63,683 nucleotides of DNA from a virus (lineage: Duplodnaviria > Caudoviricetes), in IMG/VR virus record IMGVR_UViG_3300021420_000031, positions 1 through 63,683 of that record. One strand, given 5' to 3'. Below, one piece after another: positions 28,578-46,995 of this stretch (position 1 is the first letter of the stretch; every line of letters starts with the position of its first letter). A model generated the notes under the pieces. It had not been told where the DNA came from. It worked only from the letters and a program-made list of their open reading frames with translations, and did no database searches. A program made the position numbers and the translations under genes.

Positions 28578-28881
28578 TGCGCGGCTTACGCCGGTTGAAG
28601 TTGGTGACGAGAATCTGATCGGGCAAGAGCCCGAGCCTCCGGTATCGCCGCCGACAAATCACGCGGCGAATGTGCTGACCAGTCTGCTCTTTGCCAGCAT
28701 GCGGGCGTTGTCGCAGCGGGCGGTCATCGCTCTTAGCAACCTGTTCATGGCGGCGTCGGCCGCTTCAGCTTGGTGGCTTTGGTACGTGACCATGCCGGCC
28801 CCGACGGTCCCGCAACTGGTCGGCCTGACCCTGTACGCGGGGTTCATCCTTGCGCTCAACTTTATGCTTCGGAGGAAGTGA
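28570..28881 (+). CDS. Two-TM membrane protein
   Basis: Two hydrophobic helices and a C-terminal RRK. Confidence 0.7.
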   Translation: MRSARLTPVEVGDENLIGQEPEPPVSPPTNHAANVLTSLLFASMRALSQRAVIALSNLFMAASAASAWWLWYVTMPAPTVPQLVGLTLYAGFILALNFMLRRK

Positions 28882-29033
28882 TGCCTGGTGGGCGCTTCTC
28901 TTCCAAAGAGGACCGGCAAGCCTCGCATGTAGCGGCCTCGGAACGCGCTCGCGGCAAGTCGGCTAGAGAGGCCAAGCGGATTGGGTATGCCACGGTAAAT
29001 GCGCGCAAAGGCAAACGGAGTACTCGGAAATGA
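28881..29033 (+). CDS. Small basic protein
   Basis: MPGGRFSSKEDRQASHVAASERARGKSAREAKRIGYATVNARK; coupled at both ends. Confidence 0.7.
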   Translation: MPGGRFSSKEDRQASHVAASERARGKSAREAKRIGYATVNARKGKRSTRK

Positions 29034-29161
29034 CCAAGTCTGACCGCAAGAGCCGGCAGGTCGGCCAGAAACGCGTCACCGAGATTGGCAAGCGGGCGCT
29101 TGAGAGCCACGGCTGGAAACGAGCCGGTGGCCGTTCGAAGCGGAAGACTGCGAGACGCTGA
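29030..29161 (+). CDS. Small basic protein (43 aa)
   Basis: MTKSDRKSRQVGQKRVTEIGKRALESHGWKRAGGRSKRKTARR; fills the gap exactly. Confidence 0.6.
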   Translation: MTKSDRKSRQVGQKRVTEIGKRALESHGWKRAGGRSKRKTARR

Positions 29162-29767
29162 ATGTTGCTGTTCGCTCGCATAGGCATTCTAGTTGCCGCC
29201 TGTTTGGTTTACGCGCCGACGGTGCGAGCGCAGAGCTATCCGGTCTATCAAACCGGGATAACCAGTCGTGGTCACATGACGATGTGGACCGATAACGCCC
29301 ACGTCGGGGATGCCGGCGGCGCCCTAAACGGCAAGATACAGGTGCTCGGGGTCACCCCATTGCACCCTAACCAGCCCGTCGCACCGTTCTGCATCAACGA
29401 CACGTTCATTTCCAATCCGGCGGGCTATCGCGAGATTTGCATCCGTTCAGACGCGCTCGACGGCGGCGGGGAACTCACCTATGCCGCATTCGGCGGAGCG
29501 GCGGACCTTCCATTCACCATGCAGTCGGCGAACAAGCTCGTGGTGACTTCGGGCAATCAGCAAGTCGCGATGCAGAACCTGCCGCAGACTGTCGCCGGCG
29601 ATGTCCCGGTGTGCATCAATCCGGTCACTGGGCAGTTGTTTCAAGCATCCAACGTGGACCGCACGATCCTGCTGACCGATGACGCCAACTCCAAATATCT
29701 GACCGACGATTCAGGGTCGACATACCTGACCGCCACCATCCCTGCCGGGAGCTGTATCCAGCAATGA
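29162..29767 (+). CDS. Signal-peptide fibre-associated protein A
   Basis: MLLFARIGILVAACLVYAPTVRA-Q; paralogue of 31557-32138. Confidence 0.8.
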   Translation: MLLFARIGILVAACLVYAPTVRAQSYPVYQTGITSRGHMTMWTDNAHVGDAGGALNGKIQVLGVTPLHPNQPVAPFCINDTFISNPAGYREICIRSDALDGGGELTYAAFGGAADLPFTMQSANKLVVTSGNQQVAMQNLPQTVAGDVPVCINPVTGQLFQASNVDRTILLTDDANSKYLTDDSGSTYLTATIPAGSCIQQ

Positions 29768-31185
29768 TCCGATATGTTTTGGCGGCGGTTTGTTTCCTTT
29801 GGGGCGCATCGGCGGCGATCGCGCAATGCCCCGGTTCTGCGTCTCCGTGCGAGCCGTACTCGACCTTCGTCAATTCGGTCTTGCAGGCTACTACGACCAA
29901 CACAACCGACCGCTCGGCTTATGTGCATGGCGCGACAACCCAGTATGTCCCCCCAGGTCCACCGTTCAACCTTACGATCAATGCCGCCGCCGGCGCTCCG
30001 ACCGTCATCGCCAACACGCCGCTCAATGGCGCCTATATTTCCAGCGGCGGTTCAAATGTTGTGTGGTGTCCAGCATTCAATTTTGGGTGTCCGGTCCCAG
30101 GAGATCCGGCCACAATAACTGCCCAATATGCTTCTGTAGTAACGACGCACGGTGCTGCGAATTACCAAGAAAATGGCGTCATGAATGTTATGTTCGACGT
30201 TACTGGACAGATAAATTTGTGGCAGGCATCCACTTCTTATTCTGCTGGAGCATATGTTAGCGGGACTGGATATAACGTCTATGTAGAGACAGTTGCGTCC
30301 TGCACCTCTGGCAGTTCCGACCCTAGTGGAACCGGAAACGGCATCGTGGATGGCTCGTGTCTGTGGAATTATGAGGGCCCATCGCAATCGACGGCCAAAC
30401 AATCGGCGGGCTTCAGCATTTTGCCGGGGCCGGGCGGAGGGCCGGCGTGGGGTGCCGCCATTGCCAACTATATCCAGGCCGGATGGAACAGCGAGGGCGC
30501 ATTCGGTGTCGAGATTGATCTAACGAATGGCACGACTATCGATCCCACGGTCGGGTCGATCCACACTATGGACACGCTTTACCTTGGGGGTGTCACCGGA
30601 ACGAATCCGATTACGACATTAATTTACGCGAGCCCAAGTCCGAATGGAACAGTCTTTGGGTCACATAATGGCTTATGGATTAATGGACCATATGCCGTCA
30701 AAGACTACGATATATACCTTACGACTCAACATTCTTCTATCGGGATTTATACCGCTGGTAATTTCGGACAATCCGTGGTTAATGATGGCTCTACTGCGCC
30801 GACGTGGGCCGATATTACGGGAACATATCCTACATCGATGATGTATTTATTCCCAACTAGCACCCCGGCTGATATTACGATGGCTGGTCCTGGCGCTCAA
30901 ACGGGGCTATATGCTCCAGGACACTTCTCGCTCTCCGTTATAGCAGACGATGTAGCTACGACAGCAGAAACCGGAGAGGATTGGGCGGGAACTTATAGCA
31001 CCGCCGTCATTTACATGGGAGTTGCATCGGCACCAAATATGATTATAGCGCCGAACTTCTTCCTCTCGAATGTTGGCAAAGTAACCGCTGCGAGTTACGC
31101 CGCTGGTGCGTCCAATGGTGTAAGCTGTTCAGGCTCTCCGAGCGGCTCATTCGCGAGCGTCAACGGGATCGTCACTCATTGTTGA
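29764..31185 (+). CDS. Signal-peptide tailspike/fibre-like protein
   Basis: MIRYVLAAVCFLWGASAAIA-Q; CBM-like WQASTSYSAGAYV module; C-terminal SCSGSPSGSFASVNGIVTHC. Confidence 0.75.
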   Translation: MIRYVLAAVCFLWGASAAIAQCPGSASPCEPYSTFVNSVLQATTTNTTDRSAYVHGATTQYVPPGPPFNLTINAAAGAPTVIANTPLNGAYISSGGSNVVWCPAFNFGCPVPGDPATITAQYASVVTTHGAANYQENGVMNVMFDVTGQINLWQASTSYSAGAYVSGTGYNVYVETVASCTSGSSDPSGTGNGIVDGSCLWNYEGPSQSTAKQSAGFSILPGPGGGPAWGAAIANYIQAGWNSEGAFGVEIDLTNGTTIDPTVGSIHTMDTLYLGGVTGTNPITTLIYASPSPNGTVFGSHNGLWINGPYAVKDYDIYLTTQHSSIGIYTAGNFGQSVVNDGSTAPTWADITGTYPTSMMYLFPTSTPADITMAGPGAQTGLYAPGHFSLSVIADDVATTAETGEDWAGTYSTAVIYMGVASAPNMIIAPNFFLSNVGKVTAASYAAGASNGVSCSGSPSGSFASVNGIVTHC

Positions 31186-31195
31186 GGTAATCGTC

Positions 31196-31537
31196 ATGCG
31201 CTTCTTCATGCCGCCATTTTTTGTTGTGGCATTGCTCTCTGTTGCGGCACTCGGGCAATCTATATCTGCGCCCCCCAAGCAGCTACGGCCACCTCCGCCG
31301 CCCCCAACTCTGGAGAAGCCGAAGGAACCCCTGCCGATACCGCCTTCCCATGCCTCGGCAGCGCAACCGGCCATGTCGCCGTCGGCGCAAGCCGCCATGA
31401 CGAATGCGGCGATGGCGGGAATGCGGTCGGAGGGACAGGCTCTCGCGACAAGCACCATCGAGCTTGCCGCCAAGAATGACTGGTGGGCGAAGTGCGTGAC
31501 TGAACCGAAATGCGTTTCGTGGGTGAATCAGAAATAA
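31196..31537 (+). CDS. Signal-peptide Pro-rich small protein
   Basis: MRFFMPPFFVVALLSVAALG-Q; C-terminal Cys pair. Confidence 0.7.
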   Translation: MRFFMPPFFVVALLSVAALGQSISAPPKQLRPPPPPPTLEKPKEPLPIPPSHASAAQPAMSPSAQAAMTNAAMAGMRSEGQALATSTIELAAKNDWWAKCVTEPKCVSWVNQK

Positions 31538-31556
31538 CTGACGTCGGCAAGAAAAA

Positions 31557-32138
31557 ATGATCGTGTCTCGTCTGATAGTAGCCCTGTTCCTAGTGATCGT
31601 AGCGCCAACGCTGGCGGCTGCGCAGCAGAACCAGCCTGTCTATCAGAGCGGATCGATTGCACGCGGGCGAGCAGGATACTGGATCAACAATGGCGTCATC
31701 GGCGATGCGGGACCGGCTAACGCCGGGAACATCACCGAACTCGGCCTCACGAACACCGGAACGCCGTTCTGCATCAACGATCAGTTGACGACGAACCCGA
31801 CCGGCTATCATCAGTTTTGTTTGGGCGCGCTCGCGCTCGGTGGCGGCCTAATGAACTATGGGGCATATAACGGCGCCACGCCGCTGCCATTCACCGTAAG
31901 CACGGGCGGCCCGCTGATCTTCAATTCGGCGATCAACGACATAGAGGCGAAGAACCTGCCGCTTGGGCTCGGCGGCGCGGTGCAGCTTTGTATCAGTCCG
32001 ACGACCGGGGTGCTCTCCATTGCGACGGGCGGCGCGGTGTGCGGAGGGAACACGCCGCCACCGCAGTATGTCCTGCTCCAAGGCGGGGCCGGATACATTC
32101 TCCTCCAGGGTGGAGCAGGAAGGATTCTCCTACAATGA
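31557..32138 (+). CDS. Signal-peptide fibre-associated protein A'
   Basis: MIVSRLIVALFLVIVAPTLAAA-Q; shares PVYQ, GDAG, PFCIND and LPFT with 29162-29767; C-terminal LLQGGAG repeats. Confidence 0.8.
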   Translation: MIVSRLIVALFLVIVAPTLAAAQQNQPVYQSGSIARGRAGYWINNGVIGDAGPANAGNITELGLTNTGTPFCINDQLTTNPTGYHQFCLGALALGGGLMNYGAYNGATPLPFTVSTGGPLIFNSAINDIEAKNLPLGLGGAVQLCISPTTGVLSIATGGAVCGGNTPPPQYVLLQGGAGYILLQGGAGRILLQ

Positions 32139-35100
32139 AGCGCTTTATCGCCTTTCTGCTCGCCATGTGGCCGGCGCTCGCTCTGGCCGATGCCACGGTG
32201 CCGTCCTTGGCTCCAGCCACCTCGCTGTTCGGGGCATCGACCTATCTTGCGCAAACCGGGGCAGCGAACAACCAGCTCGGCTTCCTGACCTCGACTTTCT
32301 GTCTCAACTCGGGCGCTTTGACGATTTGCCCCTCCGCGATCTCGGGGTCGATGCTCGGCCCTGGCGCGGCATTAAGCAACATCGGCGCTGGCTCTATTTC
32401 GTCGTCCTATCTGGCCCCGACCGGGGTAACGCCGGGATCATACACCAATCTCAACGCAACGATCGGCGCTGACGGGCGGATCACGGGAGCGTCGAATGGT
32501 TCCGGTGGCGGTGGTGGCGGGACGCCGGGAGGCTCAAACGGGCAGGTCCAGTATAACAACTCCGGCGCGTTCGGAGGCTTCACTTTCAGCGGCGGCGTCA
32601 CGGTAAATCCTTCGACCGGCGTTGCCGTGCTGGGCAATCCTGGGCCGTCAACCCTTGGCGGCATCGAAAGTGTTGCGCAAGTCGGGGGAGAGTTCGTTCA
32701 ATACATTGATACGTCAGGCGTGCCACACCTCGCGACGCCATCAGGCGGAGGGAATGTCACTGGCCCTGGATCGTCGGTAAACAACGATCTCGCGTGCTTC
32801 AATGGGACGAGCGGCACGCTGTTGGCGGACTGCGGCATCCTCTCGACGAATGTCGTAACTCCGACAAGCACCAACACGCTGACTAACAAGTCGATATCGG
32901 CTCCTGAAGTCAATTCGGGCAACTTAGCCGCCGCTCAAATGTCGGCCAACCTGTCGGCAGCGATTGATGCGGCAGTTGGCTCGACGCAAGGCGATATCGC
33001 CTATCGCAACGCAACCGTATGGACAGTTCTGCCGCCCGGCACGACTGGCCAATTCCTAGAGACGCAGGGCGCGTCAGCTAACCCCTTGTGGGGAACGCCA
33101 TCGGGCAGCGGCAACATGACCGGCTCCGGGGCCGCCACGACGGGCGATGTCATCTGCGGCAACAACACCAGTACGCCCCTCAACACCGCCGTCGACTGCG
33201 GCTTCGCACCGAACGCGGTCGATGATCCGACGACAACAGGGATCTTCACCGCAGCGCAATGGAATAACGGCGATGAGCTCGTCGTTACGACGGCCTCGCA
33301 AACGCTTACAGCTCCGGCAAGTTCTACGCTTGCCAGGAACGGCAACGTCTTCATCCATTCGATCGCCGCTTCGACGCTCGCGGCAAATGCCGCCGACACG
33401 ATCACCTATTGGAACGGCTCGGCCGTAACCACAACGAGCACCGGCGGCTCGATTTCGCTTGGGGCTGGTGCGCTGGTTCAAGTGACTTCAAAGGTGTCCG
33501 GCAACCTTAAGGTGGCGGGTAACATCACTGGTGGCGGGTCATCAGCCTTCAGCGCGCTAACCGGCAGCACGAACACCACAGCGGCGATGGTTGTGGGGTC
33601 GGGCGCGACGCTAGGTTTTTCAGGTTCAGGGACGATCGCCGCGACCTCTGCCCCGGTATCGGGGCTCACCGGCGTCGGAACCGGGGTTCTGACCGCGCTC
33701 GGCGTAAATGTGGGAAGCGCTGGCGCGTTCGTCGTAAATGGCGGCGCGCTAGGGACACCCTCATCCGGGACGCTGACGAACGCGACTGGTTTGCCGGCCG
33801 CTTCGGTGCTGGCGGGTGCGCTCGCAAACGGCATGACCGGCACGACGCAAACGGTTGGAGACAATACGACCAAACTCGCGACCGACGCATTCGTCATCGC
33901 CAATACTGGTGGGGCAGTTAGCATTACCTCACTGACTCCAAATCTAGTTCTGTCTCCAAGCACTATCACCGGCACTGGTACTATTGCATCCACTTCCCCC
34001 ACGACCGACCAATCCGGCGGAAGCACAGCCATTGTCACTGGATACAATACCGAACTAGTCTATGTGGGCGGAGGGTTCACTTACACGCTCGCCCAAGCCG
34101 GAACCACAGGATTCACTTCCGGTTGGGGAACCTGTCTACTCAACACCGCCGCCTCAGGTAATGCCACCATCACTGCCACAACCTCGACCTTCAAGGGCGC
34201 GAGCAATACCACGAGCCTAACCCTTGCACCGGGCGATTGGTCCTGCCCGACCAGCGATGGGACGAATTATGCCACAGCTGTAGGGCACTATGCTGGAGGT
34301 GGTGGCTCGGTCTCGGTGACGGCAGGGACGCCAAATATAGTCATCACCCCTTCACCCGGCACTGGAACTTTTACTGTCGGCGCCACTGCCGCCGCGTCCG
34401 CACATAGTGGTAATGCCTCAACCTACACCTATCAGTCGAGCGACATCGCCACCACAGTCAATCGTGGCTATACCGGGGGGGCAATGGCCGACACATTGCC
34501 GAATGTCTCGGCATCCGGGTTCGGAGCCGGGGCCTCGCTTTCTGTCTGCAATATCAGCGCCAGCCAGAACGATGTGATCACCGTGAACGCGCCCAGCACG
34601 ATAGGCGGGGCGTCATCGGTGACTGTGGGACCAAATACCTGCATGGCGATCGCCGATACCGACGGGACCAACTATACTGTCCCCGCCGCTGCTCCGACCA
34701 TTTCGGGACTGGTTAACGGACAGTTGGCTATTGCTAGCGGCACGGCTTCGCTAGGTTCTAGCGTGGCCTACAGCAATTCCGGTACGGCCAGCGATGTCGT
34801 ACAAGCGACCAGTGGGGGCGTCATCGTCAATTCACTGATCAATTTCAGCCAGGAGAAATCGGCTGGCTGGCCGGCTGGCGTGAACCCCAACAACATCGTC
34901 GTTTTCACCGCCGCTCAGGCCGAAACAGTTACCGCTATCGTTGGTCGCAATGAAGTGACCGTCGGCGCGACAGCTACGCTCACCGTAAACAAGGCCCCGA
35001 GCGGCACGCCGTGTGCATCCGGGACGGCGATCTCATCCTCGTTCAATGCAAACACAAGCGCCACAACGAACCAGAGCATCATATCCGGGACACCGACTCT

Positions 35101-35200
35101 CGCGGCCGGTGACTCGGTTTGCTTCCAGACTACCGGCGGATCGAACTGGGGATCGGGAACGGGAATTGGCACGATCACAATTTCGGTTAAGCCGTCATGA
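32135..35200 (+). CDS. Long tail-fibre-like protein with signal peptide
   Basis: ATGA-coupled start MKRFIAFLLAMWPALALA-D; fibre motifs PGGSNGQVQYNNSGAFGG, GNVTGPGSS, QGDIAYR, DNTTKLATDAFV. Confidence 0.85.
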   Translation: MKRFIAFLLAMWPALALADATVPSLAPATSLFGASTYLAQTGAANNQLGFLTSTFCLNSGALTICPSAISGSMLGPGAALSNIGAGSISSSYLAPTGVTPGSYTNLNATIGADGRITGASNGSGGGGGGTPGGSNGQVQYNNSGAFGGFTFSGGVTVNPSTGVAVLGNPGPSTLGGIESVAQVGGEFVQYIDTSGVPHLATPSGGGNVTGPGSSVNNDLACFNGTSGTLLADCGILSTNVVTPTSTNTLTNKSISAPEVNSGNLAAAQMSANLSAAIDAAVGSTQGDIAYRNATVWTVLPPGTTGQFLETQGASANPLWGTPSGSGNMTGSGAATTGDVICGNNTSTPLNTAVDCGFAPNAVDDPTTTGIFTAAQWNNGDELVVTTASQTLTAPASSTLARNGNVFIHSIAASTLAANAADTITYWNGSAVTTTSTGGSISLGAGALVQVTSKVSGNLKVAGNITGGGSSAFSALTGSTNTTAAMVVGSGATLGFSGSGTIAATSAPVSGLTGVGTGVLTALGVNVGSAGAFVVNGGALGTPSSGTLTNATGLPAASVLAGALANGMTGTTQTVGDNTTKLATDAFVIANTGGAVSITSLTPNLVLSPSTITGTGTIASTSPTTDQSGGSTAIVTGYNTELVYVGGGFTYTLAQAGTTGFTSGWGTCLLNTAASGNATITATTSTFKGASNTTSLTLAPGDWSCPTSDGTNYATAVGHYAGGGGSVSVTAGTPNIVITPSPGTGTFTVGATAAASAHSGNASTYTYQSSDIATTVNRGYTGGAMADTLPNVSASGFGAGASLSVCNISASQNDVITVNAPSTIGGASSVTVGPNTCMAIADTDGTNYTVPAAAPTISGLVNGQLAIASGTASLGSSVAYSNSGTASDVVQATSGGVIVNSLINFSQEKSAGWPAGVNPNNIVVFTAAQAETVTAIVGRNEVTVGATATLTVNKAPSGTPCASGTAISSSFNANTSATTNQSIISGTPTLAAGDSVCFQTTGGSNWGSGTGIGTITISVKPS

Positions 35201-35349
35201 TGCGAGCATGGATGTTGATCGCGATCTCGCTCGCCTCGCTTGCCTGCGGCGGCTGGCTCATCGGGGCCGGTAGCAATGCAGTGCCCCCCACCACGGCAGT
35301 TCACGGAATTATTTTGCAGCGGATCGTGCTCGCGGGAGTGAAATTATGA
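35197..35349 (+). CDS. Small hydrophobic peptide (50 aa), possible lipoprotein
   Basis: MMRAWMLIAISLASLA-C...; ATGA-coupled on both sides. Confidence 0.55.
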   Translation: MMRAWMLIAISLASLACGGWLIGAGSNAVPPTTAVHGIILQRIVLAGVKL

Positions 35350-36734
35350 GGAAAATCCTTCTAGCCTCGGCGGCGCTTGTTCTGAGTGCGACCGGCGCGC
35401 TTGCGGCGGGGACATGGCTCGGTGCCGATATTCAGGATACGGGTGCGGTCAACGAGGAAATCGCCAACGCATCGTCAACCGGCACGACGCTGAATACCCT
35501 GTCCAAGTATGTCAACGGGCAAGCGGTAATCCTAGCGACCTCGGATCTCAATCTGGCCCGAGGCGTGTGCATGTCCGGATGCGGCACGACCGGAACAGCG
35601 GTGATTGCATACTCCGGCAATGCCCAGCTGCTGATCGACGCCGCACATACGCCGACTGCTGGGCATTTCGTCACGATTTCATCGACCAATGCCGGGTACG
35701 GCAGCGATACCGGGGCCGCCACCTGCCCGACCGGGGCCAGCCAAGTTGTCGGGATCGTGCAAAGTAATGTCTCGGGCAGCATCTACAATGTCAAGCTGGG
35801 GACATTCGGTTGCACCGCGTCACTGTCGGCTGGGCAATCGTCCATCACCGAATACATCTCGCACGGCACCAGCACTTACACCGCCCCGACGAACGCGACG
35901 ATCTTCCATGTGATCGTTTGTGGCGCGGCGGGCGGTGGTTCATCGGGTGTCCCCCAGGCGTCCGGTACAAGTGCTAACGGTGGCAGCGGCGGAGGCACGG
36001 GCTCATGCGTGGAATCGTACCTGACGGCCGCACAAATGGGCGCGACGGCTACTGTTGTTGCCGGTCAGGGAGGCGCCGGCGGGGGCACCTCGACGACGTT
36101 GAATGTCGGTAACAATGGCAGTGACGGAACTAACACGACTCTCACCCCCAGCGGCTCTGGCCCAGTCTTGACCGGATATCATGGTGGTGGCGGCGGCACA
36201 GCAACGACTGGGAAAGGCGCTAGTTGTGCGGGTGCAGCAACGGGCACCACGGCACCAACTACTACCTGTGTTGGTGCTGCGGCGAACGCTTTTGGATATC
36301 CAAATTTTGCCGGGACAAATGGTTTTGGCGGGTCAACGACCGCAGGAACAGGGGCAACTACAGTAAGTGTGAATTTTGCTGGCGCTAGTGCCAGTTCCGG
36401 TGGCGGCATCAGCACGTCAACCGCCTCGGCAGGAGGTGCCGGTGTGGCAACATTAGCCGAGAACTCTGTCCCCGCTGGCGGAACGTCAGGCACTACGACA
36501 GGTGGAACCGGTGGGAATGGCGTAAGCCCATCGACCTGGATTCCGTGGCTGGGTGGTGGGTCCTCAGCGGGCGGCGGCGGTTCTTGCAATAGCAATCCAT
36601 GCACCGGCGGCCCCGCCGGCACCGGTGCGCTGCTGGCAGGCGGTTCTGGCGGCGGGGCATCGGTCGGCACCTCTGGTTCCGGCGCGGGTGCGGCCGGTGG
36701 TGACGGTGCTGTATGGATCGAAGCGAAGTTCTAA
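35346..36734 (+). CDS. Signal-peptide glycine-rich adhesin/fibre-tip-like protein
   Basis: MRKILLASAALVLSATGALA-A; TYTAP...VIVCGAAGGG...GGDGAVWI glycine-rich domain. Confidence 0.8.
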   Translation: MRKILLASAALVLSATGALAAGTWLGADIQDTGAVNEEIANASSTGTTLNTLSKYVNGQAVILATSDLNLARGVCMSGCGTTGTAVIAYSGNAQLLIDAAHTPTAGHFVTISSTNAGYGSDTGAATCPTGASQVVGIVQSNVSGSIYNVKLGTFGCTASLSAGQSSITEYISHGTSTYTAPTNATIFHVIVCGAAGGGSSGVPQASGTSANGGSGGGTGSCVESYLTAAQMGATATVVAGQGGAGGGTSTTLNVGNNGSDGTNTTLTPSGSGPVLTGYHGGGGGTATTGKGASCAGAATGTTAPTTTCVGAAANAFGYPNFAGTNGFGGSTTAGTGATTVSVNFAGASASSGGGISTSTASAGGAGVATLAENSVPAGGTSGTTTGGTGGNGVSPSTWIPWLGGGSSAGGGGSCNSNPCTGGPAGTGALLAGGSGGGASVGTSGSGAGAAGGDGAVWIEAKF

Positions 36735-36735
36735 C

Positions 36736-37512
36736 ATGCGTCTCGCTGGACTAGTTTTCGGCCTATTGTTGGCGAGCCTTCCTGCGCTTGCCCAGGTCAC
36801 TAACGGCAGCGCGGCGGGATACAGCATTCCCGCCGCGAGTTGTTCGGGTGGGGTGTGCTCTTCGGCCTCAATATCCTGGCGGCAACCTACCTGCGCCAAT
36901 ACTGGCAGTGGAGCTAACGGCGGGATTTGGCCGGGCATTGGCGGTATCTCCCCAGACACGACACTGATCCAAATCGGCGTTCGGTGTGTTACGAGCCAGT
37001 TCGTCGCGACGACTTATGCTCCCTTTTATCAGCTGGTTCCGGCGGCAGCAGTAAACATATCTCAAACGGTGTCGCCGGGCGATATTATGATCGCCTCGGT
37101 GGTATGCCTGACAAGCTGCACGACACCGAATGTATCTCAGACATGGACACTCACGCTCCAAGATGTTACCCAAAATTGGACCTACACAAATACGCCGGTC
37201 ACATATACGTCGTCGCTCGCCACCGCCGATTATTTCGTGGAGGCTCCGACGATCCTTGGCATTCAGCCGATGGCGAATGTCGGGAGCGTGGCTTTCGTGT
37301 CCGCTAAGGTGAATGGTAGCCCGGCAACCTTCACAACCGGGGAGCAGTTCATCATGAACAACACCAACGGCCAGACGGTCAATCCCTCCGCTCCATCCGG
37401 GAGCGCATTCAATGCCTGTTGGGGCCAGCCAAGTGCAACCTACACTACCTGCACCGCTGCCGGTACTCTTGCAGTGGCTAAGGGGACGGGTGCATGGCTG
37501 GTGGGGCGCTAA
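36736..37512 (+). CDS. Signal-peptide G1-family glutamic peptidase (eqolisin-like)
   Basis: MRLAGLVFGLLLASLPALA-Q; WPGIGG, LIQIG, VSPGDIMIASV, ADYFVEAP, ANVGSVAF follow G1 motif order, with catalytic Q and E present. Confidence 0.8.
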   Translation: MRLAGLVFGLLLASLPALAQVTNGSAAGYSIPAASCSGGVCSSASISWRQPTCANTGSGANGGIWPGIGGISPDTTLIQIGVRCVTSQFVATTYAPFYQLVPAAAVNISQTVSPGDIMIASVVCLTSCTTPNVSQTWTLTLQDVTQNWTYTNTPVTYTSSLATADYFVEAPTILGIQPMANVGSVAFVSAKVNGSPATFTTGEQFIMNNTNGQTVNPSAPSGSAFNACWGQPSATYTTCTAAGTLAVAKGTGAWLVGR

Positions 37513-37516
37513 TAAT

Positions 37517-39661
37517 ATGATTGGTCGAAGATTAATACCGGCTGCACTACTGATATTGGCTCTGTGCGGCTTCCTTGGCTTCCACGGTGGTATTGGCACC
37601 ACAACCGGCGCCTGCGACACGATTACGGGAGGATGCCCAGCCGCACACAGCATGTCGCAAAAGCTTGTGTCGTCGTATTCCGGCAATGCCTTCGAGCTGA
37701 TCAACCCGACCCCGGCTTGGACCGGGACAGGCTCGATCTCCGGGACGACCCTAACCGTGGCCAGCACCGCGACAGGGACGATGGCCAACGGCCTCGCCCT
37801 CTCGGCCGCAGGATCGGGTGTGACCCCGGGAGTGGTTCCCGTTACCTACACCTCGGGATGCTCTGGCTCGACTTGCACCGTGAGCCAGTCACAGACCGCG
37901 GCATCGGTCACGAGCGCCTACTCGGTACTCGATGTTGGCTTCCTCGGCAGCGGCGCCTGGAACGAGAGTACCTGGCAATCCTTCTGCTATGGCGTTACCT
38001 GCCTAGTCGAGAAGATCTTCAACCAAGGTTCGGGTGGCACCGCCAACGATCTAATCGCGTCGCAGATCACTGGCGGCGCGGCCAACATGCTCAATTGCAC
38101 CGCGAGCATCGTGGTTTGCGCGCCGCTGTTCGTCATTGACACAGCGACCGACACGCCGATGGCAATCACGACAGCTTCAATTATGGGCCTGTTCGGCGAT
38201 GCTTATGTCGGCCACAGCTCTTCTGGCTTCCCGGCGGCCGGAGCGAATGCTTCGGTCATGTTCTCGGGGCTCAACATTTACGCCTCGAATTGCTGTGGTG
38301 GACTCTACGGCTTCACCGAGAACAATCCGGCGTCGATCATCGCTGGCGGCATGCTAGCGGTCGGGTTTGCCAACGGCACCGGCTCGGGAGGTGCGGTCAA
38401 CTGTCAAGCCGCTAACCTCATCTGCTTCTTAGCTGACACCGAGACCGGCGGCGATCCGATCGCGGGGCCGTGGCAGGTCTACGACAGCGCCGCCGAGCAG
38501 CGTGGTATTTGGGAAATAAACTATACGAGCGGCACCAACACCGCGTCTGGTTCCTATGCCGATACCCAGCTTTACAGCGTCTCGCCTCCTAATTCCACCG
38601 CATCGACCCGCCAGACATGGCTCCGCATAGGGGCTGGCGGCGACCGGTCTTGGCTCCCAGAGGCATTCAGCGACGGCTTGATTACAGCCGATGTGACCAC
38701 CACGCCGCACACGGCGGCCTATAACGCCATGTCCAGCTTCTACTCGGGGCGATCAGCGTCGGCTTGCCGAGGGCCGCTCGATTTTACTTGGTACATGCCG
38801 ACTTCGGGCGTCGGTGCGGCGGGAAGCGGACTCGCAACCTCACTGTTCACCATCGGCGACGGCATGGGCGCATGGGGCACTCGACCGCTCAGTGCTTGGT
38901 ACACGGGTCCGATCATAACCCTTCAAAACAGCGCTGGCTCCGGCAGCATCCAGACATTCTCGGCGGTCGGCTGCGATCTCGACCCGGCGGTGACATCGTT
39001 TTGCGCGAGCGGCTGCCTGGTCAATACGCTCTACAGCCAGGCATGGGACACCGCCGGCACGACGCACGGCAACGTCCGAAACACTGGCTACGACATGAGC
39101 GCATCAGGCTCGACCCGGCCGTCCCTGACCCTGGCGTCGCTCGGCGGCCAGCCGACGATCCATTTCAGCGGCGCACAGGAACTGTGCACGCCGACGCTCG
39201 GCACTGCGGGACAGGTGCGCGGCACCTATCCGGCGGAGCTTGCCGTGGTCGCCCGGCGCACCAGCGGCTCGGCGTTGAGCGCCGTGTGGTCGACTAGCTC
39301 GATCGACCCAGGCATCGGCTTCGACACCGCAAACAACGCTTTCTTCTGGTGGGGAATTCAGCAGGACGAGGCAGCGAACGACAATCTGTGGCATAGCCTG
39401 ATCATACACGCGATCGGAGCCACCGGCGGCACGGCTTATGTCGACGGCTCGGCGAACTCGGTATCGTTCACGACCGGCGCTGATCCATTCCCGGCCAATT
39501 ACTGCATCGGCGGCCGTCCCGGCGGCACCAGCGAGTTGACCGGCGATGTCGCTGAAGTCGTCTTGACCTATAACGCCCTCTTCAATGGCTCAGTGGCCAA
39601 CAACGCCGCCTCGATCCTATCGAATGATCAAACATTTTACGGCGTAACTTTCCCGCATTAA
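37517..39661 (+). CDS. Signal-peptide protein with GH54 arabinofuranosidase-B-like domain(s)
   Basis: GACD...AAHS...YSG, SFCYGVTCLVEKIFNQ...NDL, NCC, ADTETG, GAGGDRS; a second related module follows. Confidence 0.7.
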   Translation: MIGRRLIPAALLILALCGFLGFHGGIGTTTGACDTITGGCPAAHSMSQKLVSSYSGNAFELINPTPAWTGTGSISGTTLTVASTATGTMANGLALSAAGSGVTPGVVPVTYTSGCSGSTCTVSQSQTAASVTSAYSVLDVGFLGSGAWNESTWQSFCYGVTCLVEKIFNQGSGGTANDLIASQITGGAANMLNCTASIVVCAPLFVIDTATDTPMAITTASIMGLFGDAYVGHSSSGFPAAGANASVMFSGLNIYASNCCGGLYGFTENNPASIIAGGMLAVGFANGTGSGGAVNCQAANLICFLADTETGGDPIAGPWQVYDSAAEQRGIWEINYTSGTNTASGSYADTQLYSVSPPNSTASTRQTWLRIGAGGDRSWLPEAFSDGLITADVTTTPHTAAYNAMSSFYSGRSASACRGPLDFTWYMPTSGVGAAGSGLATSLFTIGDGMGAWGTRPLSAWYTGPIITLQNSAGSGSIQTFSAVGCDLDPAVTSFCASGCLVNTLYSQAWDTAGTTHGNVRNTGYDMSASGSTRPSLTLASLGGQPTIHFSGAQELCTPTLGTAGQVRGTYPAELAVVARRTSGSALSAVWSTSSIDPGIGFDTANNAFFWWGIQQDEAANDNLWHSLIIHAIGATGGTAYVDGSANSVSFTTGADPFPANYCIGGRPGGTSELTGDVAEVVLTYNALFNGSVANNAASILSNDQTFYGVTFPH

Positions 39662-39665
39662 GGCC

Positions 39666-42600
39666 ATGAGAAAGATCCTCGCGCTCGCCTTCACGCTGCT
39701 ACTGATCGGGATCATCCCGGCTGACGCGCTCCGCTTGCGCGGCGGCGGCGCACTGGTTTCTGGCGGCGGCCAAACAATCGCCAGCATCAGCCTGTCGAAC
39801 AGCAGCTTCACCGGCGGGTCGCCTTCCGGAACTGTAGTGGGTGCGATCAGCACCACGATGTCACCGGCTTCGCCCGCTTTCTCCGGCTCTTATTCGGTGA
39901 CGGGGACGAATGCGGCAAGTTTTCAGGTAGTCGGGAGTAACTTGGAGACCAACGGCGTCGTCGCGGCGGGCTCCTATTCGATCAACATTGTTGCTACCCA
40001 AGCGGGGATCTCCAACTCGCCATTCAGCAGCCCGAAGACGATCACCGGCAACGCCCAGACGATCGCTAGCGTCAACATCTCGAATACGACGTACACGCCG
40101 AACTCCGCGAATGCCGTGGTCGGCACGCTCACGGTCACGATGTCACCCTCGACCCCGGTATCGACAGCGGCACTGACTGTCACAGGCGCGAACTCGGGAG
40201 GCTTTCATCTCGTCGGGGCCGGCTGCGCAAACATCAGCACGGGGACCTGCACAGTCGAGACCAACTCGGGCGGCACGACGGGCTCGGGACCGTTCACCGA
40301 TGTTAATTTCGTCGCGACACAAGCGAGCGCATCGAACTCGCCGCAATCGATCTCGCCATCGCTCTCCGGCACGGGAGGAGCGGGAACCGTCGTCGATACG
40401 ATGACCTTCCCTAATATCGGTTCTGGGACGACGCCGGGCTCGGCAATTCCGAAACATGCGATGCTGAATGTGCCTCCTGGAGCTGTCCCAGCTGGCATGA
40501 TCGCGGTTCCAACAGTCGCGAGTTCCGCGATCCCCTATCAATACGATTGCGCCGCCGAGCCATCTACGACTGCTTTCACGGGGTCAATCGCGAGCGGCGT
40601 ACTAAGCGGCGCGACAGTGCCGCTGGTCATCGGCAGCACGGTCACCGGCGCTGGCGTCACCTCCGGGACCGTCATCAGCGCGATCGTTACCGCGGCCAGC
40701 AACACCTATACCGTGACACCATCGCAGACCGTCGCCAGCACGACCATCACCGCGACATTCGGCGGCTGCAATTTGTGGCCGGACGGCAGTTTGAAGAACG
40801 CCGCGATCTCGATGTTCCTGCCGACCCTGGCCTCTGCGGCAGCCGAGCAGGTAACCTGGACGACGACCTCCGGCAGTCTTGCCTCGGGCGGTCTCGGCGT
40901 GACCCCGACCACTGTCGCCGCCGCAAGCGACTATCGAGTTTACGCGACGAACGTCAACACGATATGGGTTAACAACATTCAGATGCCGACCGGTATCGCC
41001 CAGGTCGGGTGCGGGCCGACAGCGGGATCGCTTCCCTCGCCAGGCGGCTGCGTGATCCGCCTTCAGGCCGGCTCGGCCGGGACGCACTATGGCTATATCG
41101 GGAATAATTGTTCCACCAATCCGGCTGTAAATGGCATTCCACCCTGCATTACCGCGTCCGACAACACCGTGACCGTGGCCTCGACCACCGGGGCGCCTAC
41201 CGTGGTAACCTGCAATGTAACACCTTGCCCACTTGGCACGGTCTCAGGCGCGCTAGTCGTCGACACGACCACGCCGAGCAATATCCCAAACAACACCGTC
41301 ATTACTAGCTCGCCGGTCTTCAGCGGTGGTAATACATTCACACTGTCATCAAATGCAACCATCACTAATGGTGATACTCTCCGGCTTCTTTACCCGGTCA
41401 ATGGGTGCACCAACGCCGGCTTTTATTTTACGGCGTTGGATGGTACGACTTCGCTGCCAACCGGCGTCACCGTGCCATCTTATGGGACGGGTTCGGCCTG
41501 TGCGGTAACCGGCTCCGGTAACGAGAAGTTCTTCTTCAACGACTCTCTCAACCTCTATGGCTCAAATCAGCCGCCGACATGCGCGGCAGCGGGCGGATCG
41601 GCATCGTTTACCGGGTCTTACTCCTCCGGCACCCTGACCACGAGCGCGGTTACGGGTGCGCTCTCCAAGGGCCAAATCGTCTTCGACTCGGTTGGTGCCC
41701 ATGCGCTGGTGACGGCCGGTTCAGGATCGTCCTGGTCTGTCAATGCGGCTCTTACCAACGGCGCGATGACTGCCAGGGTGCCGGTCTGTATCTACGCCAA
41801 CGGCAATGGCAGCTCGACCTCTGGCATGTACGGGTTGCGGCTCTATGGACCGCTGGTCGATACTTCGACTGGCGCGCAAGACCCAAACTTCGAGAGGGTG
41901 TGGGGATATATAGAATATTGGGTAAACGGCAGCGCTCTAGTAACGACGCGCGCCATCGCGGGGATCGACAATTCGGTCTACTTGCCGTCAGGCACATCAA
42001 CCCAGGTGCAGTGGCCTTCAGAGACGATGGATCTGGACTTCACCAACGGCACGACGCCCGGTGGTGCGGGGGAGATTCGCGGTGCAGCGCAAGGCACCGG
42101 CATGTGGACCCACCTGACGACAGAAGCGCCAACGGTGTTCTATTCGGCAGATCCCGCACTTAGCGGCCCGATCGGGATCTCAGGGACCGCTGACTGGCTC
42201 GGCCCGACCTCGGGCACATTCAACCTCGCGAACAGCGAAGCTTGGAACTCGGTCCAGATGTCACGTACCGGGACAGACCTGACGTACTGGCACGGCAACC
42301 ACGCGCATCAGCCGTTGGCCCCCGCTGCTGGTGTAGCGCCGCTGGTTATAAACAGTTCAACAGTCGGCACTTACTATGGCCTCGCCACCTATCTCGGCTA
42401 CTACAAGCCCTATGACGCACCGTTCATGGATTCAAATTCCTCGACATCATGGAACAATGGTGGCGAGCATTTCTTCTTGTCGCCCGACAGCGCCCACGGC
42501 GCTTACCTCTATTACGCTTGGGCCGATGGCGCGAGCGACCTTGGAATGTCATGGCTACAACAACTCCGCATCTCGTCCCTGGAACTTCCGGGGCAAGCCG

Positions 42601-44411
42601 CAGGCATCCACGAAGACGTGACCGGCCACGCACTTAACCTCGATTATGTGTGGACTACCAAGCCGACAGCCCTTACCGATCCGGTGGAACTGTTCTCGCA
42701 TGTATTATGCAATAACGGGTTCGATCCGCAGACAACCATGTGCAACAACATCAACCAGAGCGGGCAGCGTAAGACGCAGACGCCGCCGAGCGGTACTGCG
42801 AATGACGCCTCGCACTGGCCGATCGGGAATGTCGGCTACATAACTTCTATTGAGGGTGAACGCTGGCAGGTCGATTTGCTGGCCCTAGAAGCTCAAGACG
42901 TTGAGCAGACTGAGTATGACGACTACAAGCGCGTCGCCAACCTTGCCGGAAGGAATTGGTATGGGCTGATGCAAGACTTCGTGGGCGAGAACCGCGTCAT
43001 GGGCTGGGCGCCCGCACAGGTCAGCGACGCGGTTCAGTACATGCCGGGTAGCGAGCCTGAAGCGCAATATCAGTTCCACACTATCGCCAATTGGTATGAC
43101 GCCCGCGCAGCTTGGTACACATATACGGGGACCTTCTCGTCCGGCGTCAATTATCCTTCGCCCACCGTATCAACTCTGACCGGGACCAAGCACTATGATT
43201 ACTCGGCTCAGGGAATAGGAACGCAGCCTTATGATTTGATCGATCAGCCGCAAGGCCAATCGAACATGAGCATCTCTGTGTTCGAGCAAGGCTACGAGGC
43301 TATGTCGATGGACAAGTCGGTGATGGAATTGGACCATTCCGTCCCGAGCGTCGATACCGTGGCGACCTATTTTATCGACAATATGATTGTAGCTAGCGAG
43401 GCCGAGAACTCTTGTATTTATAATTCGTTGTCGTACGCGCCCGGTGAGGGCGTCATGACTCCACAGTCGAATCAGCAGCAGACGCTCCCTGGCGCTAATG
43501 GCTTGAGCGCTGGTTGGGACGCGACCGATCTCAATAATCCCCAGGCGGGGAATATGTCCGTCCTCGGGGCTGCGACTCTGGAGCTTGAGGTTTATAACGG
43601 TTCGACGTTAGTCACGGCGGTTGCCGGCCCGGGCGGCGGTGATGGCCTGCCTGCCCAGAACCTCTCTGCGCAAATCACAACGACCGGGACTTCGCCGGCT
43701 GGGACAACGATTAACATCCCAGCCGGGAGCGCGGCTAATGCATTCCCCAAGGGGATCATCAACGATATAACCAACGGTACGGGACCGTTCTTCATTCAAT
43801 CGATTGCGTCGACGACGATCACCCTGATGTCGAGCACGCCGACGACGGGCATTGGGTCGGGAGATGTGCTCTATGTCTCGCGAGTGGACACCTACCCTGA
43901 TTACCCGATAAGTGCGGGTAATATCTATAAGTCTGGCAGTGTTGTGTTCTTTACCGCCGCCGATGGCCAGGAAGAGACCAACCAGGATATAGCGCCACAT
44001 GATTTCCCGGTGCCGACCACGCCACCCGGCGCCGTGCTTGAGGGCAAAGCCTATATCTGGTGCCAAGACCCATCGGGCGCTTGGGCCGGAACAATCAATC
44101 CATACGGCACAAATTGCGCCTCGCCAGCCCCGATCACCTTCGCCGGCAACAAGGCGTATAATGCGATGTGGATTGTCAATGACGTGTGTCCGGCTCGCTC
44201 GATAGGAACGTGGAATACCTATGGTGACTATCAGTCTCCGACATCGAGACTCGCTGAGTATTGGGCCACTATCGAGGGCCGGATCACAACGGTTGGGGCT
44301 AATACCGCTCGCACGGCGGCCGAGACCCAGATGTCACCGAGCATGACGCCGCTGAGCACGACATTCGGCGGCGGCAACAATCCGCGCTACAATTACGACA
44401 ATCACTACTGA
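39666..44411 (+). CDS. Very large signal-peptide protein with cadherin/Ig-like repeats and a possible polysaccharide-lyase-like region
   Basis: MRKILALAFTLLLIGIIPADA; two ISLSN...VVG repeats; WPDGSLK; C-terminal DASHWP and ENRVMGW. Confidence 0.75.
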   Translation: MRKILALAFTLLLIGIIPADALRLRGGGALVSGGGQTIASISLSNSSFTGGSPSGTVVGAISTTMSPASPAFSGSYSVTGTNAASFQVVGSNLETNGVVAAGSYSINIVATQAGISNSPFSSPKTITGNAQTIASVNISNTTYTPNSANAVVGTLTVTMSPSTPVSTAALTVTGANSGGFHLVGAGCANISTGTCTVETNSGGTTGSGPFTDVNFVATQASASNSPQSISPSLSGTGGAGTVVDTMTFPNIGSGTTPGSAIPKHAMLNVPPGAVPAGMIAVPTVASSAIPYQYDCAAEPSTTAFTGSIASGVLSGATVPLVIGSTVTGAGVTSGTVISAIVTAASNTYTVTPSQTVASTTITATFGGCNLWPDGSLKNAAISMFLPTLASAAAEQVTWTTTSGSLASGGLGVTPTTVAAASDYRVYATNVNTIWVNNIQMPTGIAQVGCGPTAGSLPSPGGCVIRLQAGSAGTHYGYIGNNCSTNPAVNGIPPCITASDNTVTVASTTGAPTVVTCNVTPCPLGTVSGALVVDTTTPSNIPNNTVITSSPVFSGGNTFTLSSNATITNGDTLRLLYPVNGCTNAGFYFTALDGTTSLPTGVTVPSYGTGSACAVTGSGNEKFFFNDSLNLYGSNQPPTCAAAGGSASFTGSYSSGTLTTSAVTGALSKGQIVFDSVGAHALVTAGSGSSWSVNAALTNGAMTARVPVCIYANGNGSSTSGMYGLRLYGPLVDTSTGAQDPNFERVWGYIEYWVNGSALVTTRAIAGIDNSVYLPSGTSTQVQWPSETMDLDFTNGTTPGGAGEIRGAAQGTGMWTHLTTEAPTVFYSADPALSGPIGISGTADWLGPTSGTFNLANSEAWNSVQMSRTGTDLTYWHGNHAHQPLAPAAGVAPLVINSSTVGTYYGLATYLGYYKPYDAPFMDSNSSTSWNNGGEHFFLSPDSAHGAYLYYAWADGASDLGMSWLQQLRISSLELPGQAAGIHEDVTGHALNLDYVWTTKPTALTDPVELFSHVLCNNGFDPQTTMCNNINQSGQRKTQTPPSGTANDASHWPIGNVGYITSIEGERWQVDLLALEAQDVEQTEYDDYKRVANLAGRNWYGLMQDFVGENRVMGWAPAQVSDAVQYMPGSEPEAQYQFHTIANWYDARAAWYTYTGTFSSGVNYPSPTVSTLTGTKHYDYSAQGIGTQPYDLIDQPQGQSNMSISVFEQGYEAMSMDKSVMELDHSVPSVDTVATYFIDNMIVASEAENSCIYNSLSYAPGEGVMTPQSNQQQTLPGANGLSAGWDATDLNNPQAGNMSVLGAATLELEVYNGSTLVTAVAGPGGGDGLPAQNLSAQITTTGTSPAGTTINIPAGSAANAFPKGIINDITNGTGPFFIQSIASTTITLMSSTPTTGIGSGDVLYVSRVDTYPDYPISAGNIYKSGSVVFFTAADGQEETNQDIAPHDFPVPTTPPGAVLEGKAYIWCQDPSGAWAGTINPYGTNCASPAPITFAGNKAYNAMWIVNDVCPARSIGTWNTYGDYQSPTSRLAEYWATIEGRITTVGANTARTAAETQMSPSMTPLSTTFGGGNNPRYNYDNHY

Positions 44412-44420
44412 GCTAACGCT

Positions 44421-44615
44421 ATGATCTACATATGGCTTATCATGGCGCTCGCGGTCGGGCCGAGCCACGGCCCGAATGCTCATCAGGAGTCAGGATTAGC
44501 CTATCCTGCCGGGGGGTATGAGTGGCGGGAGTTCTCATCGCCGGAGGAATGCAACCGCCATCGGCAGACCGATGCGCAGCAATGCGTGAAGGTCGCGGTC
44601 CGGTTGTCCCCCTGA
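44421..44615 (+). CDS. Small exported Cys-pair protein
   Basis: Hydrophobic N-terminus; FSSPEEC...QCV. Confidence 0.6.
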   Translation: MIYIWLIMALAVGPSHGPNAHQESGLAYPAGGYEWREFSSPEECNRHRQTDAQQCVKVAVRLSP

Positions 44616-44662: not shown

Positions 44663-45310
44663 ATGAAAGTTGTCCCTGCACGTGCCGGTGCGGTCGGCTT
44701 CGACACGGATTCGCCGCTGACCGCATCGCTGTGCGAAAGCCTCATCGGCCAGGGATACGAATTCGCGATCCGGTATGTCAGCCATACCCAGCCGGAAGCC
44801 GGAGACCTGTCACCAGCCGAAGTCCAGGCGATCCTGGGTTCGGGGCTGGCGCTTATGGTTGTCGTGCATTCACCGGCTCCGGGTTGGGCACCACGCGGCG
44901 TCGCCGGGGCCGAGCACGCGACATGGGCAGTCAGCAACCTGGAAGGCGCCGGACTGCGCGCGGTCGGCGCGATGACGGTCTGGTGCGACCTCGAAGGCGT
45001 GCTGCCCGGCACGCCCGCCAGCGACATCATCGATTACGTCAACACCTGGACCGTGGGCATCAGGGCGGCAGGCTATCAGCCGGGCCTCTATGTAGGCTAT
45101 GACGCCTTCCTGACCGGCTCGCAGCTTTATGTAGATCTGTACCTGGCCCGGTATTGGAAGAGCGCCTCTGCCGTACCCACCCCGGCGCTGCGCGGGTTCT
45201 GCATGACACAGATGCTTGGTGCCGGGCCGATGGTCGCCGCGGTGCAAATCGACCGCGACGTGATCCAAGCCGATCGGCTCGGGGGGCTTCCGATGTGGCT
45301 GGTCGCGTGA
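44663..45310 (+). CDS. Endolysin, DUF1906 / GH25-like glycoside hydrolase
   Basis: GFDT, FAIRYVS, WCDLEG, GYQPGLY, IDRD; first gene of the lysis region. Confidence 0.8.
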   Translation: MKVVPARAGAVGFDTDSPLTASLCESLIGQGYEFAIRYVSHTQPEAGDLSPAEVQAILGSGLALMVVVHSPAPGWAPRGVAGAEHATWAVSNLEGAGLRAVGAMTVWCDLEGVLPGTPASDIIDYVNTWTVGIRAAGYQPGLYVGYDAFLTGSQLYVDLYLARYWKSASAVPTPALRGFCMTQMLGAGPMVAAVQIDRDVIQADRLGGLPMWLVA

Positions 45311-46992: not shown

Positions 46993-46995
46993 GCC

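Follow-up and report, generated by a model that had tools for sequence, protein, structure and literature searches.

Predicted export leaders and even cysteine counts in a variable, fibre-like gene module of an uncultured podovirus-like phage

Tailed-phage assembly is described in textbooks as taking place wholly in the reducing cytoplasm. The podovirus fibres and tailspikes, such as T7 gp17, K1F endosialidase and the P22 tailspike, combine an N-terminal domain that binds the particle with a Peptidase_S74 chaperone at the C terminus. We analysed one whole IMG/VR virus record (IMGVR_UViG_3300021420_000031; 63,683 bp, rated 99% complete), which is called the window below, and asked why a block of genes in the place of podoviral fibre genes encodes proteins that nearly all begin like secreted proteins. 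The block, at positions 29162-44615 on the + strand, consists of 11 genes (g1 to g11) with about 5100 residues in 15.45 kb, or ~24% of the genome. A further gene of this kind, g0, starts at 17625. In our opinion, with a probability of roughly 55%, the block is a variable receptor-binding module, the fibres or spikes of which are exported by Sec, become disulfide-bonded and join the virions at lysis. Of the readings considered, attachment to the virion seems the most likely, and we infer from the data the cleavage of the leaders, the periplasmic location, the docking site and the timing of attachment.

Leaders in the module and in related phages

The eleven genes were originally predicted to be consecutive and mostly coupled open reading frames (ORFs). 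The start coordinates are genuine and the genes are tightly packed, every start codon being the first to follow the preceding stop. Neighbouring genes overlap by 4 bases at 29764, 32135, 35197 and 35346 and are 1-19 bases apart at the other module starts. The leaders and the cysteine motifs reported with them (SCSGGVC, GCSGSTC, FCYGVTC, FCASGC and CMSGC) are all present in the translations. Leaders were called with a rule of our own, which asks for a basic n-region, then a hydrophobic core free of charges, then a cleavage site with small residues at -3 and -1. The gene calls, the leader test and the cleavage sites are home-made, crude heuristics. A hydrophobic leader was found at the N terminus of all 11 module proteins and of g0, and it was classical by the rule in g0 and in nine of the 11. 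The other two are g6, which fits a lipoprotein or membrane peptide, and g11, in which the hydrophobic N terminus has no basic n-region. Except for g11, the window leaders have one or two Lys or Arg residues in the n-region. By the same rule no leader was found in the terminase, the portal protein, the capsid protein, the four head-to-tail adaptor paralogs or the 750-amino-acid (aa) protein at 19175. The rule-based test thus bore out the claim that leaders mark the module and the gene at 17625 and are missing from capsid, portal and adaptors.

The capsid protein matched 100 related IMG/VR loci, whereas a search for related loci with g4 alone yielded no confirmed relative. Five whole relatives (G001-G005) have capsids 62-96% identical to that of the window, and from ten others (G006-G015) only the region downstream of the homolog of the small gene at 28570-28881 was taken. 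The core genes are syntenic and 30-96% identical across the relatives. The module is unrelated or only locally similar, and differs even in G001, the adjoining genes of which are ~77% identical. Module genes begin with leaders in all five whole relatives, and in G006-G015 most large ORFs after the 28570-28881 homolog are leader-bearing, with leaderless exceptions in G008. In the six genomes, genes of at least 100 aa were tested with the strict rule, any of the first 12 start codons being allowed for every gene. Leaders were present in 26 of 29 module genes versus 12 of 270 other genes (Fisher p = 5e-25). Of the three module genes that failed the rule, G001 33828 has in-frame starts further upstream that look leader-like, another fails because of the charge of its n-region and the third is truly leaderless.

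Two of the module proteins, g1 and g4, have a common N-terminal domain (N-domain) with the pattern QxG..GH..W..D.G followed by two cysteines. It heads proteins of 113-1328 aa and had no match in Pfam, PHROG or PDB. In the g4 alignment leaders are present in 17/17 sequences, differing from one another, and conservation starts at the predicted mature N terminus. A profile built from the mature N-domain alone was searched among 1.84 billion entries and gave 1577 cluster representatives at E <= 1e-3, 986 of them at E <= 1e-10. In most of the best 150 of the 1577, the domain begins between residues 17 and 30. The strict leader rule is passed by 141 of the 150, and leaders are visible in most of the remaining nine. 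The family member P0017 begins with the motif itself but has a second copy preceded by a leader. The same leader behaviour was seen in the g9 family, which is unrelated to g1 and g4: leaders are present in 7/7 members and variable, and conservation begins at ACDTITGGC. Homologous loci had been named in the original prediction as a place to check the leaders, and in the relatives they are kept, with drifting sequence and with conservation that starts at the predicted cleavage site. Chance and a start-codon artefact were rejected on the 26/29 versus 12/270 comparison and on the leaders of the best 150 family representatives. The leader observation is real, family-wide and statistically overwhelming.

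A cleavage site could be located in 135 representatives. Position -3 is Ala in 110 of them, -1 is Ala in 120 and +1 is Gln in 119; the site is the best one within a 9-residue span, so the -3 and -1 counts are favoured by the method. The median leader length is 19 aa, the net charge of the n-region is +1 or +2 in 126/135, and the uncharged run has a median of 15 residues (5-95% range 11-18, c-region included), where the hydrophobic core of a Sec signal has roughly 7-15 and falls short of a membrane span. Paired arginines in the n-region were found in 5/135 representatives and, in the window, only in g9; a twin-arginine (Tat) signal was rejected on this basis. Judged by sequence, the pattern is that of Sec and signal peptidase I and not that of Tat substrates or lipoproteins, and export is well supported as a prediction.

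Two side observations concern N-domain genes and their neighbours. In the phage contig G016 (L130), with a capsid 77% identical to that of the window, the N-domain is absent and the module mixes leaderless and leader-bearing proteins; one of the leaderless proteins looks glycosyltransferase-like by eye. Leader-bearing proteins of ~80 aa are encoded just 5' of N-domain genes in G005 (L098:2434-2682, - strand) and G007 (reverse complement of L112, 3770-4012). They have the common mature start QQLPPLD..QLGVCQQQ, one has a single, odd cysteine, and they could act as a periplasmic helper or as part of the lysis system.

Cysteine parity and leaderless copies of the N-domain

On the rationale that folding in an oxidising compartment would leave cysteines paired, cysteines were counted in proteins having at least one. 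Mature counts were even in 34 of 36 module proteins of the six genomes. The exceptions include g6, the only one from the window with an odd count, and its cysteine lies at the predicted processing site. The full module precursors gave 25 even versus 11 odd counts, and the other genes of the same genomes 107 even versus 121 odd (binomial and Fisher p ~1e-8). In the N-domain family representatives (n=136) the mature counts were 130 even versus 6 odd, and the full-length counts 100 versus 36. The counts therefore pair up once the leader cysteines are excluded, from 25:11 to 34:2 in the modules and from 100:36 to 130:6 in the family.

These counts also bear on the idea that the leaders are uncleaved signal anchors, which would tether the proteins to the inner membrane facing the periplasm and serve exclusion, lysis timing or a lipid-containing particle. 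The atypical leader ends of g6, g9 and g11 would suit such anchors, as would the several small membrane proteins that flank the module. However, evenness appears only without the leader cysteines, which fits removal of the leader or at least its exclusion from folding. The uncharged runs are also short (median 15) and are followed by A-x-A and Gln in most of the 135 representatives, and the capsid, portal, terminase and adaptor genes point to an ordinary tailed particle. We consider membrane tethering very unlikely.

Several relatives have N-domain genes within the group of adaptor genes, at a distance of 3-6 kb downstream from the capsid gene. Both conserved cysteines are kept in 4/4 of these ORFs with a leader, and the pair is absent in 6/6 without one (L041, L063, L064, L072, L109 4705 and L049, where L063 and L064 have the same sequence and L049 is a partial match). 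The leaderless ORFs start directly at the predicted mature N terminus, and L063 and L064 have Gly at both conserved cysteine positions. Counted to the ORF end, their cysteines number 0, 2, 7, 1, 11 and 1, that is, with no parity. The cysteine pair tracks the leader, and therefore the same anchor-like domain appears to exist in two forms, one cytoplasmic and Cys-free, the other exported and with a Cys pair. Export with disulfide folding is strongly supported by these sequence patterns.

The default expectation for tailed phages is that no export occurs. The hydrophobic N termini would then have a structural role, such as burial in the tail, or result from wrong starts, and the proteins would fold in the cytoplasm. 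The starts and the leader test are heuristic, and some tailed phages form disulfides without known export, for example Milano (PMC10811340, in its accessible portion). However, the start that gives the leader is the first one after the preceding stop in 11/11 genes. The n-h-c form and A-x-A followed by Gln persist in ~150 representatives less than 50% identical to each other, although the leader sequence itself drifts. The structural variant is disfavoured because a buried segment would be conserved in sequence. The leaderless copies, moreover, begin exactly at the predicted mature N terminus and have no Cys pair. Of the explanations considered, cytoplasmic folding of the whole set appears the least probable.

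Fibres for the virion or free enzymes

The fibre-like nature of the exported proteins was assessed from homology and structural models. Peptidase_S74 was detected in leader-bearing proteins of G004 (1320 aa, E = 3.2e-14) and G005 (E = 1.9e-11). Pfam domains among 73 N-domain family members were Beta_helix (3), S74 (3), Gly_rich_2 (2), SASA (1) and NosD (1), and one leaderless N-domain protein has a pectate-lyase-like beta-helix, the usual tailspike design. The module is mosaic, with short modules shuffled among relatives beside a conserved core, and a conserved N-terminal anchor is followed by a variable, mosaic distal part, as is characteristic of fibres. The position of g0 within the head-tail gene cluster parallels that of the N-domain genes of the relatives. 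Structure prediction had been proposed for trimer formation, and the homotrimer model of mature g4, the sole protein modelled in this way, passed its controls: it scored 0.93 against 0.00 for the best of three controls, with a predicted local distance difference test (pLDDT) value of 84. In the model the chains are intertwined, and the runs agree on at least 67% of contacts. The calibration of this score (20/30 solved pairs versus 1/23 single chains) holds only roughly here. The AlphaFold2 (AF2) monomer of g4 was poor (pLDDT 48.6), below use for fold search. Neighbours in the ESM Atlas were all below 0.9 and are leads only; those with families belong to tail-fibre families. A trimeric, fibre-like nature is supported by the models and homology, with the hallmark domains coming from relatives.

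Behind its leader, g1 (29162..29767) carries the N-domain with the Cys pair, four mature cysteines in all, and is a paralog of g4 (39% identical). g4 (31557..32138) has a leader and the N-domain and, on the strength of the 17-sequence alignment, the profile family and the trimer model, is probably a short trimeric fibre-like protein. At its C terminus (32040-32138) a repeated LLQGG.G.ILLQGG.GRILLQ, or a variant with N, is conserved in 14/17 aligned sequences and may be a short assembly or binding element. Among the tail core genes, g0 (17625..18248, + strand; 207 aa) is rich in Gly, Ser and Thr; its leader ends in VYA before Gln, it has two mature cysteines, and a leader-bearing gene occupies the same position in G001 (11433-11912).

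The other module proteins, apart from g6 and g11, are likewise predicted to be exported by leaders of their own. They include g2 (29764..31185; 473 aa, eight mature cysteines), which had no Pfam or PHROG match and has a 72-aa module in common with G001 36803, and g3 (31196..31537), a proline-rich protein of 113 aa with two mature cysteines. The fibre-like g5 (32135..35200; 1021 aa, G/S/T-rich, 12 mature cysteines) has short modules in common with G001 28490 and G013 278; it had no family and no significant PDB match, the best being antibody light chains at E 0.11. The peptide g6 (35197..35349) is hydrophobic, 50 aa long and possibly a lipoprotein, with a cysteine directly after the leader. In g7 (35346..36734; 462 aa, 10 mature cysteines) the C-terminal half is glycine-rich, with weak matches to Gly_rich_2 (E 0.0032, below cut-off) and to phrog_754, a minor tail protein (E 5e-4), and its residues 38-163 match an internal module of G001 28490 at 51% identity. 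The last large gene, g10 (39666..44411; 1581 aa, 20 mature cysteines), has a positional homolog in G001 36803 (1535 aa), 26-44% identical in pieces and also with a leader and 20 cysteines. The 64-aa g11 (44421..44615), with a hydrophobic N terminus and two cysteines, is encoded just 5' of the endolysin gene, had no PHROG match and may be part of the lysis cassette and not of the fibre set.

Two module proteins look like enzymes. g8 (36736..37512; 258 aa, eight mature cysteines) matched Peptidase_A4 (PF01828) with E 9.5e-12 and 45.2 bits, the gathering cut-off being 22.3, and a homolog 85% identical retains the leader. The catalytic dyad of Peptidase A4 (eqolisin) is Gln/Glu. Q79 and E169 are invariant in four sequences, the search for a solved relative on which to map the dyad gave none, and one acidic column is Asp in g8 and Glu in two homologs; with this column differing, the predicted peptidase activity of g8 is uncertain. 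These acid-active glutamic peptidases are unusual in phage. g9 (37517..39661; 714 aa) is Cys-rich, with 18 mature cysteines, and has no Pfam match itself; its homolog P0172 carries PF13385 (Laminin_G_3) and has the NCBI name 'arabinofuranosidase catalytic domain-containing'.

Several points weigh against a receptor-binding module that is assembled outside the cytoplasm. Among nine module proteins and g0 scanned with Pfam and PHROG (the scan did not include g6 and g11), only g8 with Peptidase_A4 and weakly g7 were matched, and no fibre hallmark domain (S74, beta-helix or collar) was found in these proteins. PDB sequence searches were insignificant for g5, g8, g9, g10 and the N-domain profile. 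The fibre hallmarks are seen only in relatives and there in a minority (~10/73), most members having no Pfam domain. Large leaderless proteins, one with a beta-helix, are encoded in or after the module of G008, G013 and G014; cytoplasmic spikes therefore exist too, and the exported proteins need not bind receptors. The peptidase-like g8 and the glycosidase-like g9 could equally be enzymes that are secreted and act freely. Until lysis, the particles would be kept in a different compartment from the fibres. Finally, we found no precedent: the literature search gave no description of signal peptides on tailed-phage fibres or spikes, with subscription journals and supplementary files outside its coverage.

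In a rival explanation, which we consider less probable though serious, the proteins are exported and disulfide-bonded without being part of the virion. As free periplasmic or released enzymes or binders, such as depolymerases and peptidases, they could loosen the host envelope or slime around lysis, destroy receptors on debris or block superinfection. The match of g8 to Peptidase_A4, the arabinofuranosidase name and Laminin_G_3 domain of the g9 homolog, and the SASA esterase and beta-helix domains within the N-domain family would all agree with this, and the leaderless beta-helix candidates of some relatives could be the true virion spikes. Pantoea WceF is reportedly a secreted tailspike-like glycanase. 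Signal peptides were counted on 3261 of 64,678 prophage carbohydrate-active enzymes (CAZymes), or 5%, according to the accessible part of PMC13507307; in PMC5026251, as far as its available text goes, signal peptides are mentioned only in the methods. As in those CAZymes and in WceF, beta-helix and enzyme domains stand here behind an export signal, with envelope glycans as targets. However, those are single accessory enzymes without an N-domain resembling a virion anchor, whereas here a whole variable module is concerned. Its only module-wide domain is N-terminal and also heads leaderless spike-like proteins among adaptor genes, an arrangement typical of a part that anchors proteins to the virion. 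Chaperones of the Peptidase_S74 type and trimers of intertwined chains are characteristic of fibres, nothing else in the window stands out as a variable receptor-binding candidate, and ~24% of the genome would go to accessory enzymes.

According to another explanation a lysogen displays or secretes the proteins as adhesins or hydrolases. This possibility is weakened by the module genes being coupled inside the late operon. No promoter-like site was found on the + strand in 27600-47500 when an E. coli-type consensus alone was used, and no integrase was present among the genes scanned, which were part of the gene set. Nine contigs bearing the capsid gene carry mixed labels of metagenome-assembled genomes (MAGs): Acidobacteriota 4 (in 3 MAGs), Patescibacteria 2, Acetobacteraceae 1, other Alphaproteobacteria 1 and Verrucomicrobia 1. 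Those of the contigs that are phage-sized reflect binning and not integration. The N-domain was found in 0/301 sampled genomes of one candidate host phylum, that of one such MAG; the phage contig of that MAG is also without the N-domain.

If the proteins do join the virion, the following route can be proposed. Late in infection the precursors would cross the inner membrane unfolded via Sec, and the leader would be cut after A-x-A, usually leaving an N-terminal Gln. In the periplasm the proteins would fold and trimerise, with all their cysteines oxidised into disulfides. S74 chaperones work without ATP. Capsid-tail particles would meanwhile be built in the cytoplasm, and the fibres would meet them only once a holin has opened the inner membrane. 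Since the endolysin candidate lacks a leader, we assume a hole-forming holin. Docking would take place through the conserved N-domain, probably at the adaptor/nozzle region, where the fibres of other podoviruses dock. The addition of fibres and spikes to particles in vitro is classical for T4 and P22, and late attachment is plausible for this reason. Of the periplasmic fibre folding originally predicted, export and disulfides are well supported by leader conservation, Cys parity and the leader-linked Cys pair, and attachment to the virion is the part that we infer.

The exported proteins resemble known podovirus fibres in the conserved N-domain with hypervariable mosaic C-terminal parts, in the trimer model, in the S74, beta-helix and esterase domains of family members and in the location of the genes next to those for adaptor, nozzle and ejection proteins. 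The known podovirus fibres lack signal peptides and reach their fold in the cytoplasm, whereas nearly all members here have a Sec-type leader and an even number of cysteines. Filamentous phage (Ff) coat proteins have signal sequences and are matured at or beyond the inner membrane. Ff particles, unlike what is expected here, leave by extrusion through the envelope, with no lysis, and are devoid of capsid, portal and tail, whereas the window encodes terminase, portal, relatives of the HK97-type capsid gene and adaptor rings. We know of no leaders on the proteins of Agrobacterium phage Milano. In that phage disulfide bonds stabilise tail structures, as stated in the available part of PMC10811340; here too disulfides are predicted as a stabiliser, but their signature is tied to leaders. 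In the portion of the review PMC6116005 available, phage signal peptides are treated only for endolysins. Exported endolysins (Lys44 of fOg44, which has a signal peptide, and the signal-arrest-release (SAR) endolysins) and spanins are, in the same portion of that review, late proteins that pass through Sec and wait in the envelope for the holin, as is proposed here. Those endolysins, however, are lysis enzymes, one or two per phage, whereas here a whole fibre-like module would be exported and the endolysin candidate is leaderless.

In its broadest form, which we judge to have an even chance of being correct, the proposal is that a large and uncultured tailed-phage lineage builds its virions in two compartments. 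The whole receptor-binding set would be exported, oxidised and snapped on when the holin opens, and the switch between exported and cytoplasmic forms would be a leader and a Cys pair added to the same anchor domain. If true, this would be a second, periplasmic branch of tailed-phage virion assembly and would explain disulfide-stabilised extracellular phage parts. Infectivity would rely on the Sec, signal peptidase and Dsb systems of the host, which would be host factors of a new class and might be targets of defence. Signal peptides are commonly taken as evidence against a structural role, and such fibres may be wrongly annotated as secreted proteins resembling those of hosts. For experiments, the two versions of one domain, leaderless and Cys-free or leader-bearing with a Cys pair, are a ready-made pair. 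Even if the proteins are not virion-bound, the use of about a quarter of a phage genome for exported proteins would be unusual.

The genome around the module

The window is a nearly complete podovirus-like genome with a G+C content of ~60% and no tRNA genes. The late operon is long and on the + strand, in the order terminase, portal, capsid, adaptors, ejection proteins, leader module and lysis genes; the replication genes (RecT-like, primase and helicase) are on the - strand. The terminase gene (6880, +) was identified by a weak match to phrog_5989, and the portal (9491, +) and capsid (12857, +) genes by 27-34% identity to proteins named 'portal' and 'major capsid protein' in two records of uncultured phages. 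These two were the only INPHARED records to match capsid and portal; INPHARED gave no DNA match and no match to g4, and this phage collection held no cultured relative. Together with terminase, portal and adaptor rings, the relatives of the HK97-type capsid gene make up an ordinary tailed-particle gene set.

The four tandem head-to-tail adaptor paralogs (14842..17628, +) were recognised with AF2 and Foldseek. The model of 14842-15546 has a pLDDT of 80.3, and its best Foldseek matches in PDB are adaptor or tail chains of the podophages GP4 (E 1.3e-8, template-modelling (TM) score 0.65), A4, VP1, N4, DEV, SU10 and crAss001. The fold match covers 17 chains with E 1.3e-8 to 1e-3, all from portal-tail complexes and mostly of podophages. 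This region is likely the docking region for the fibres. A fifth protein (18255-19175) resembles the four paralogs in its C-terminal part, and the paralog copy number is 2-4 among relatives, which suggests that the tail neck consists of stacked, diverged adaptor rings. The 750-aa protein (19175, +) has Ig-like repeats and is followed by probable ejection proteins, one with a Phage_lysozyme2 domain.

The upstream border of the variable module is the small membrane protein gene at 28570..28881 (+), with homologs in 15/15 virus-record relatives searched (G001-G015). Between this gene and g1, which it adjoins, lies a 43-aa, very basic ORF (29030..29161, +) that belongs to no family and has an 80% identical counterpart in the corresponding place of G001. 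For the large protein encoded at 26995-28344, between the lysozyme-domain protein and the module, tblastn (E <= 1e-4) gave nothing in G001-G005, even though the adjoining genes of G001 are ~77% identical; the variable region may therefore begin upstream of the leader-bearing genes. At the downstream border is the endolysin candidate (44663..45310, +), which matched Rv2525c_GlyHyd-like with E 3.1e-17 in a scan of the longer ORF 44522-45310 and has no leader from the ATG at 44663. It is followed by small membrane proteins and lipoproteins. One of these lipoproteins (45916..46308, +), with a leader that ends in SIA before GC and no PHROG match, is a possible spanin and as such would hint at a two-membrane host. 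A PHROG scan of ten small proteins around the module and the lysis region gave no match, and the holin and spanin roles are for this reason guesses.

Two genes elsewhere on the - strand were also observed. In the early/replication region, 50141-50989 encodes a radical-SAM-like protein (phrog_9298, E 1.8e-16). Between two late-operon genes, 23059-23304 encodes an 81-aa lipoprotein with a leader that ends in LLSGC and two further cysteines. A copy 51% identical (E 2e-29) is present at the same place in G001, and the protein could be a superinfection-exclusion factor.

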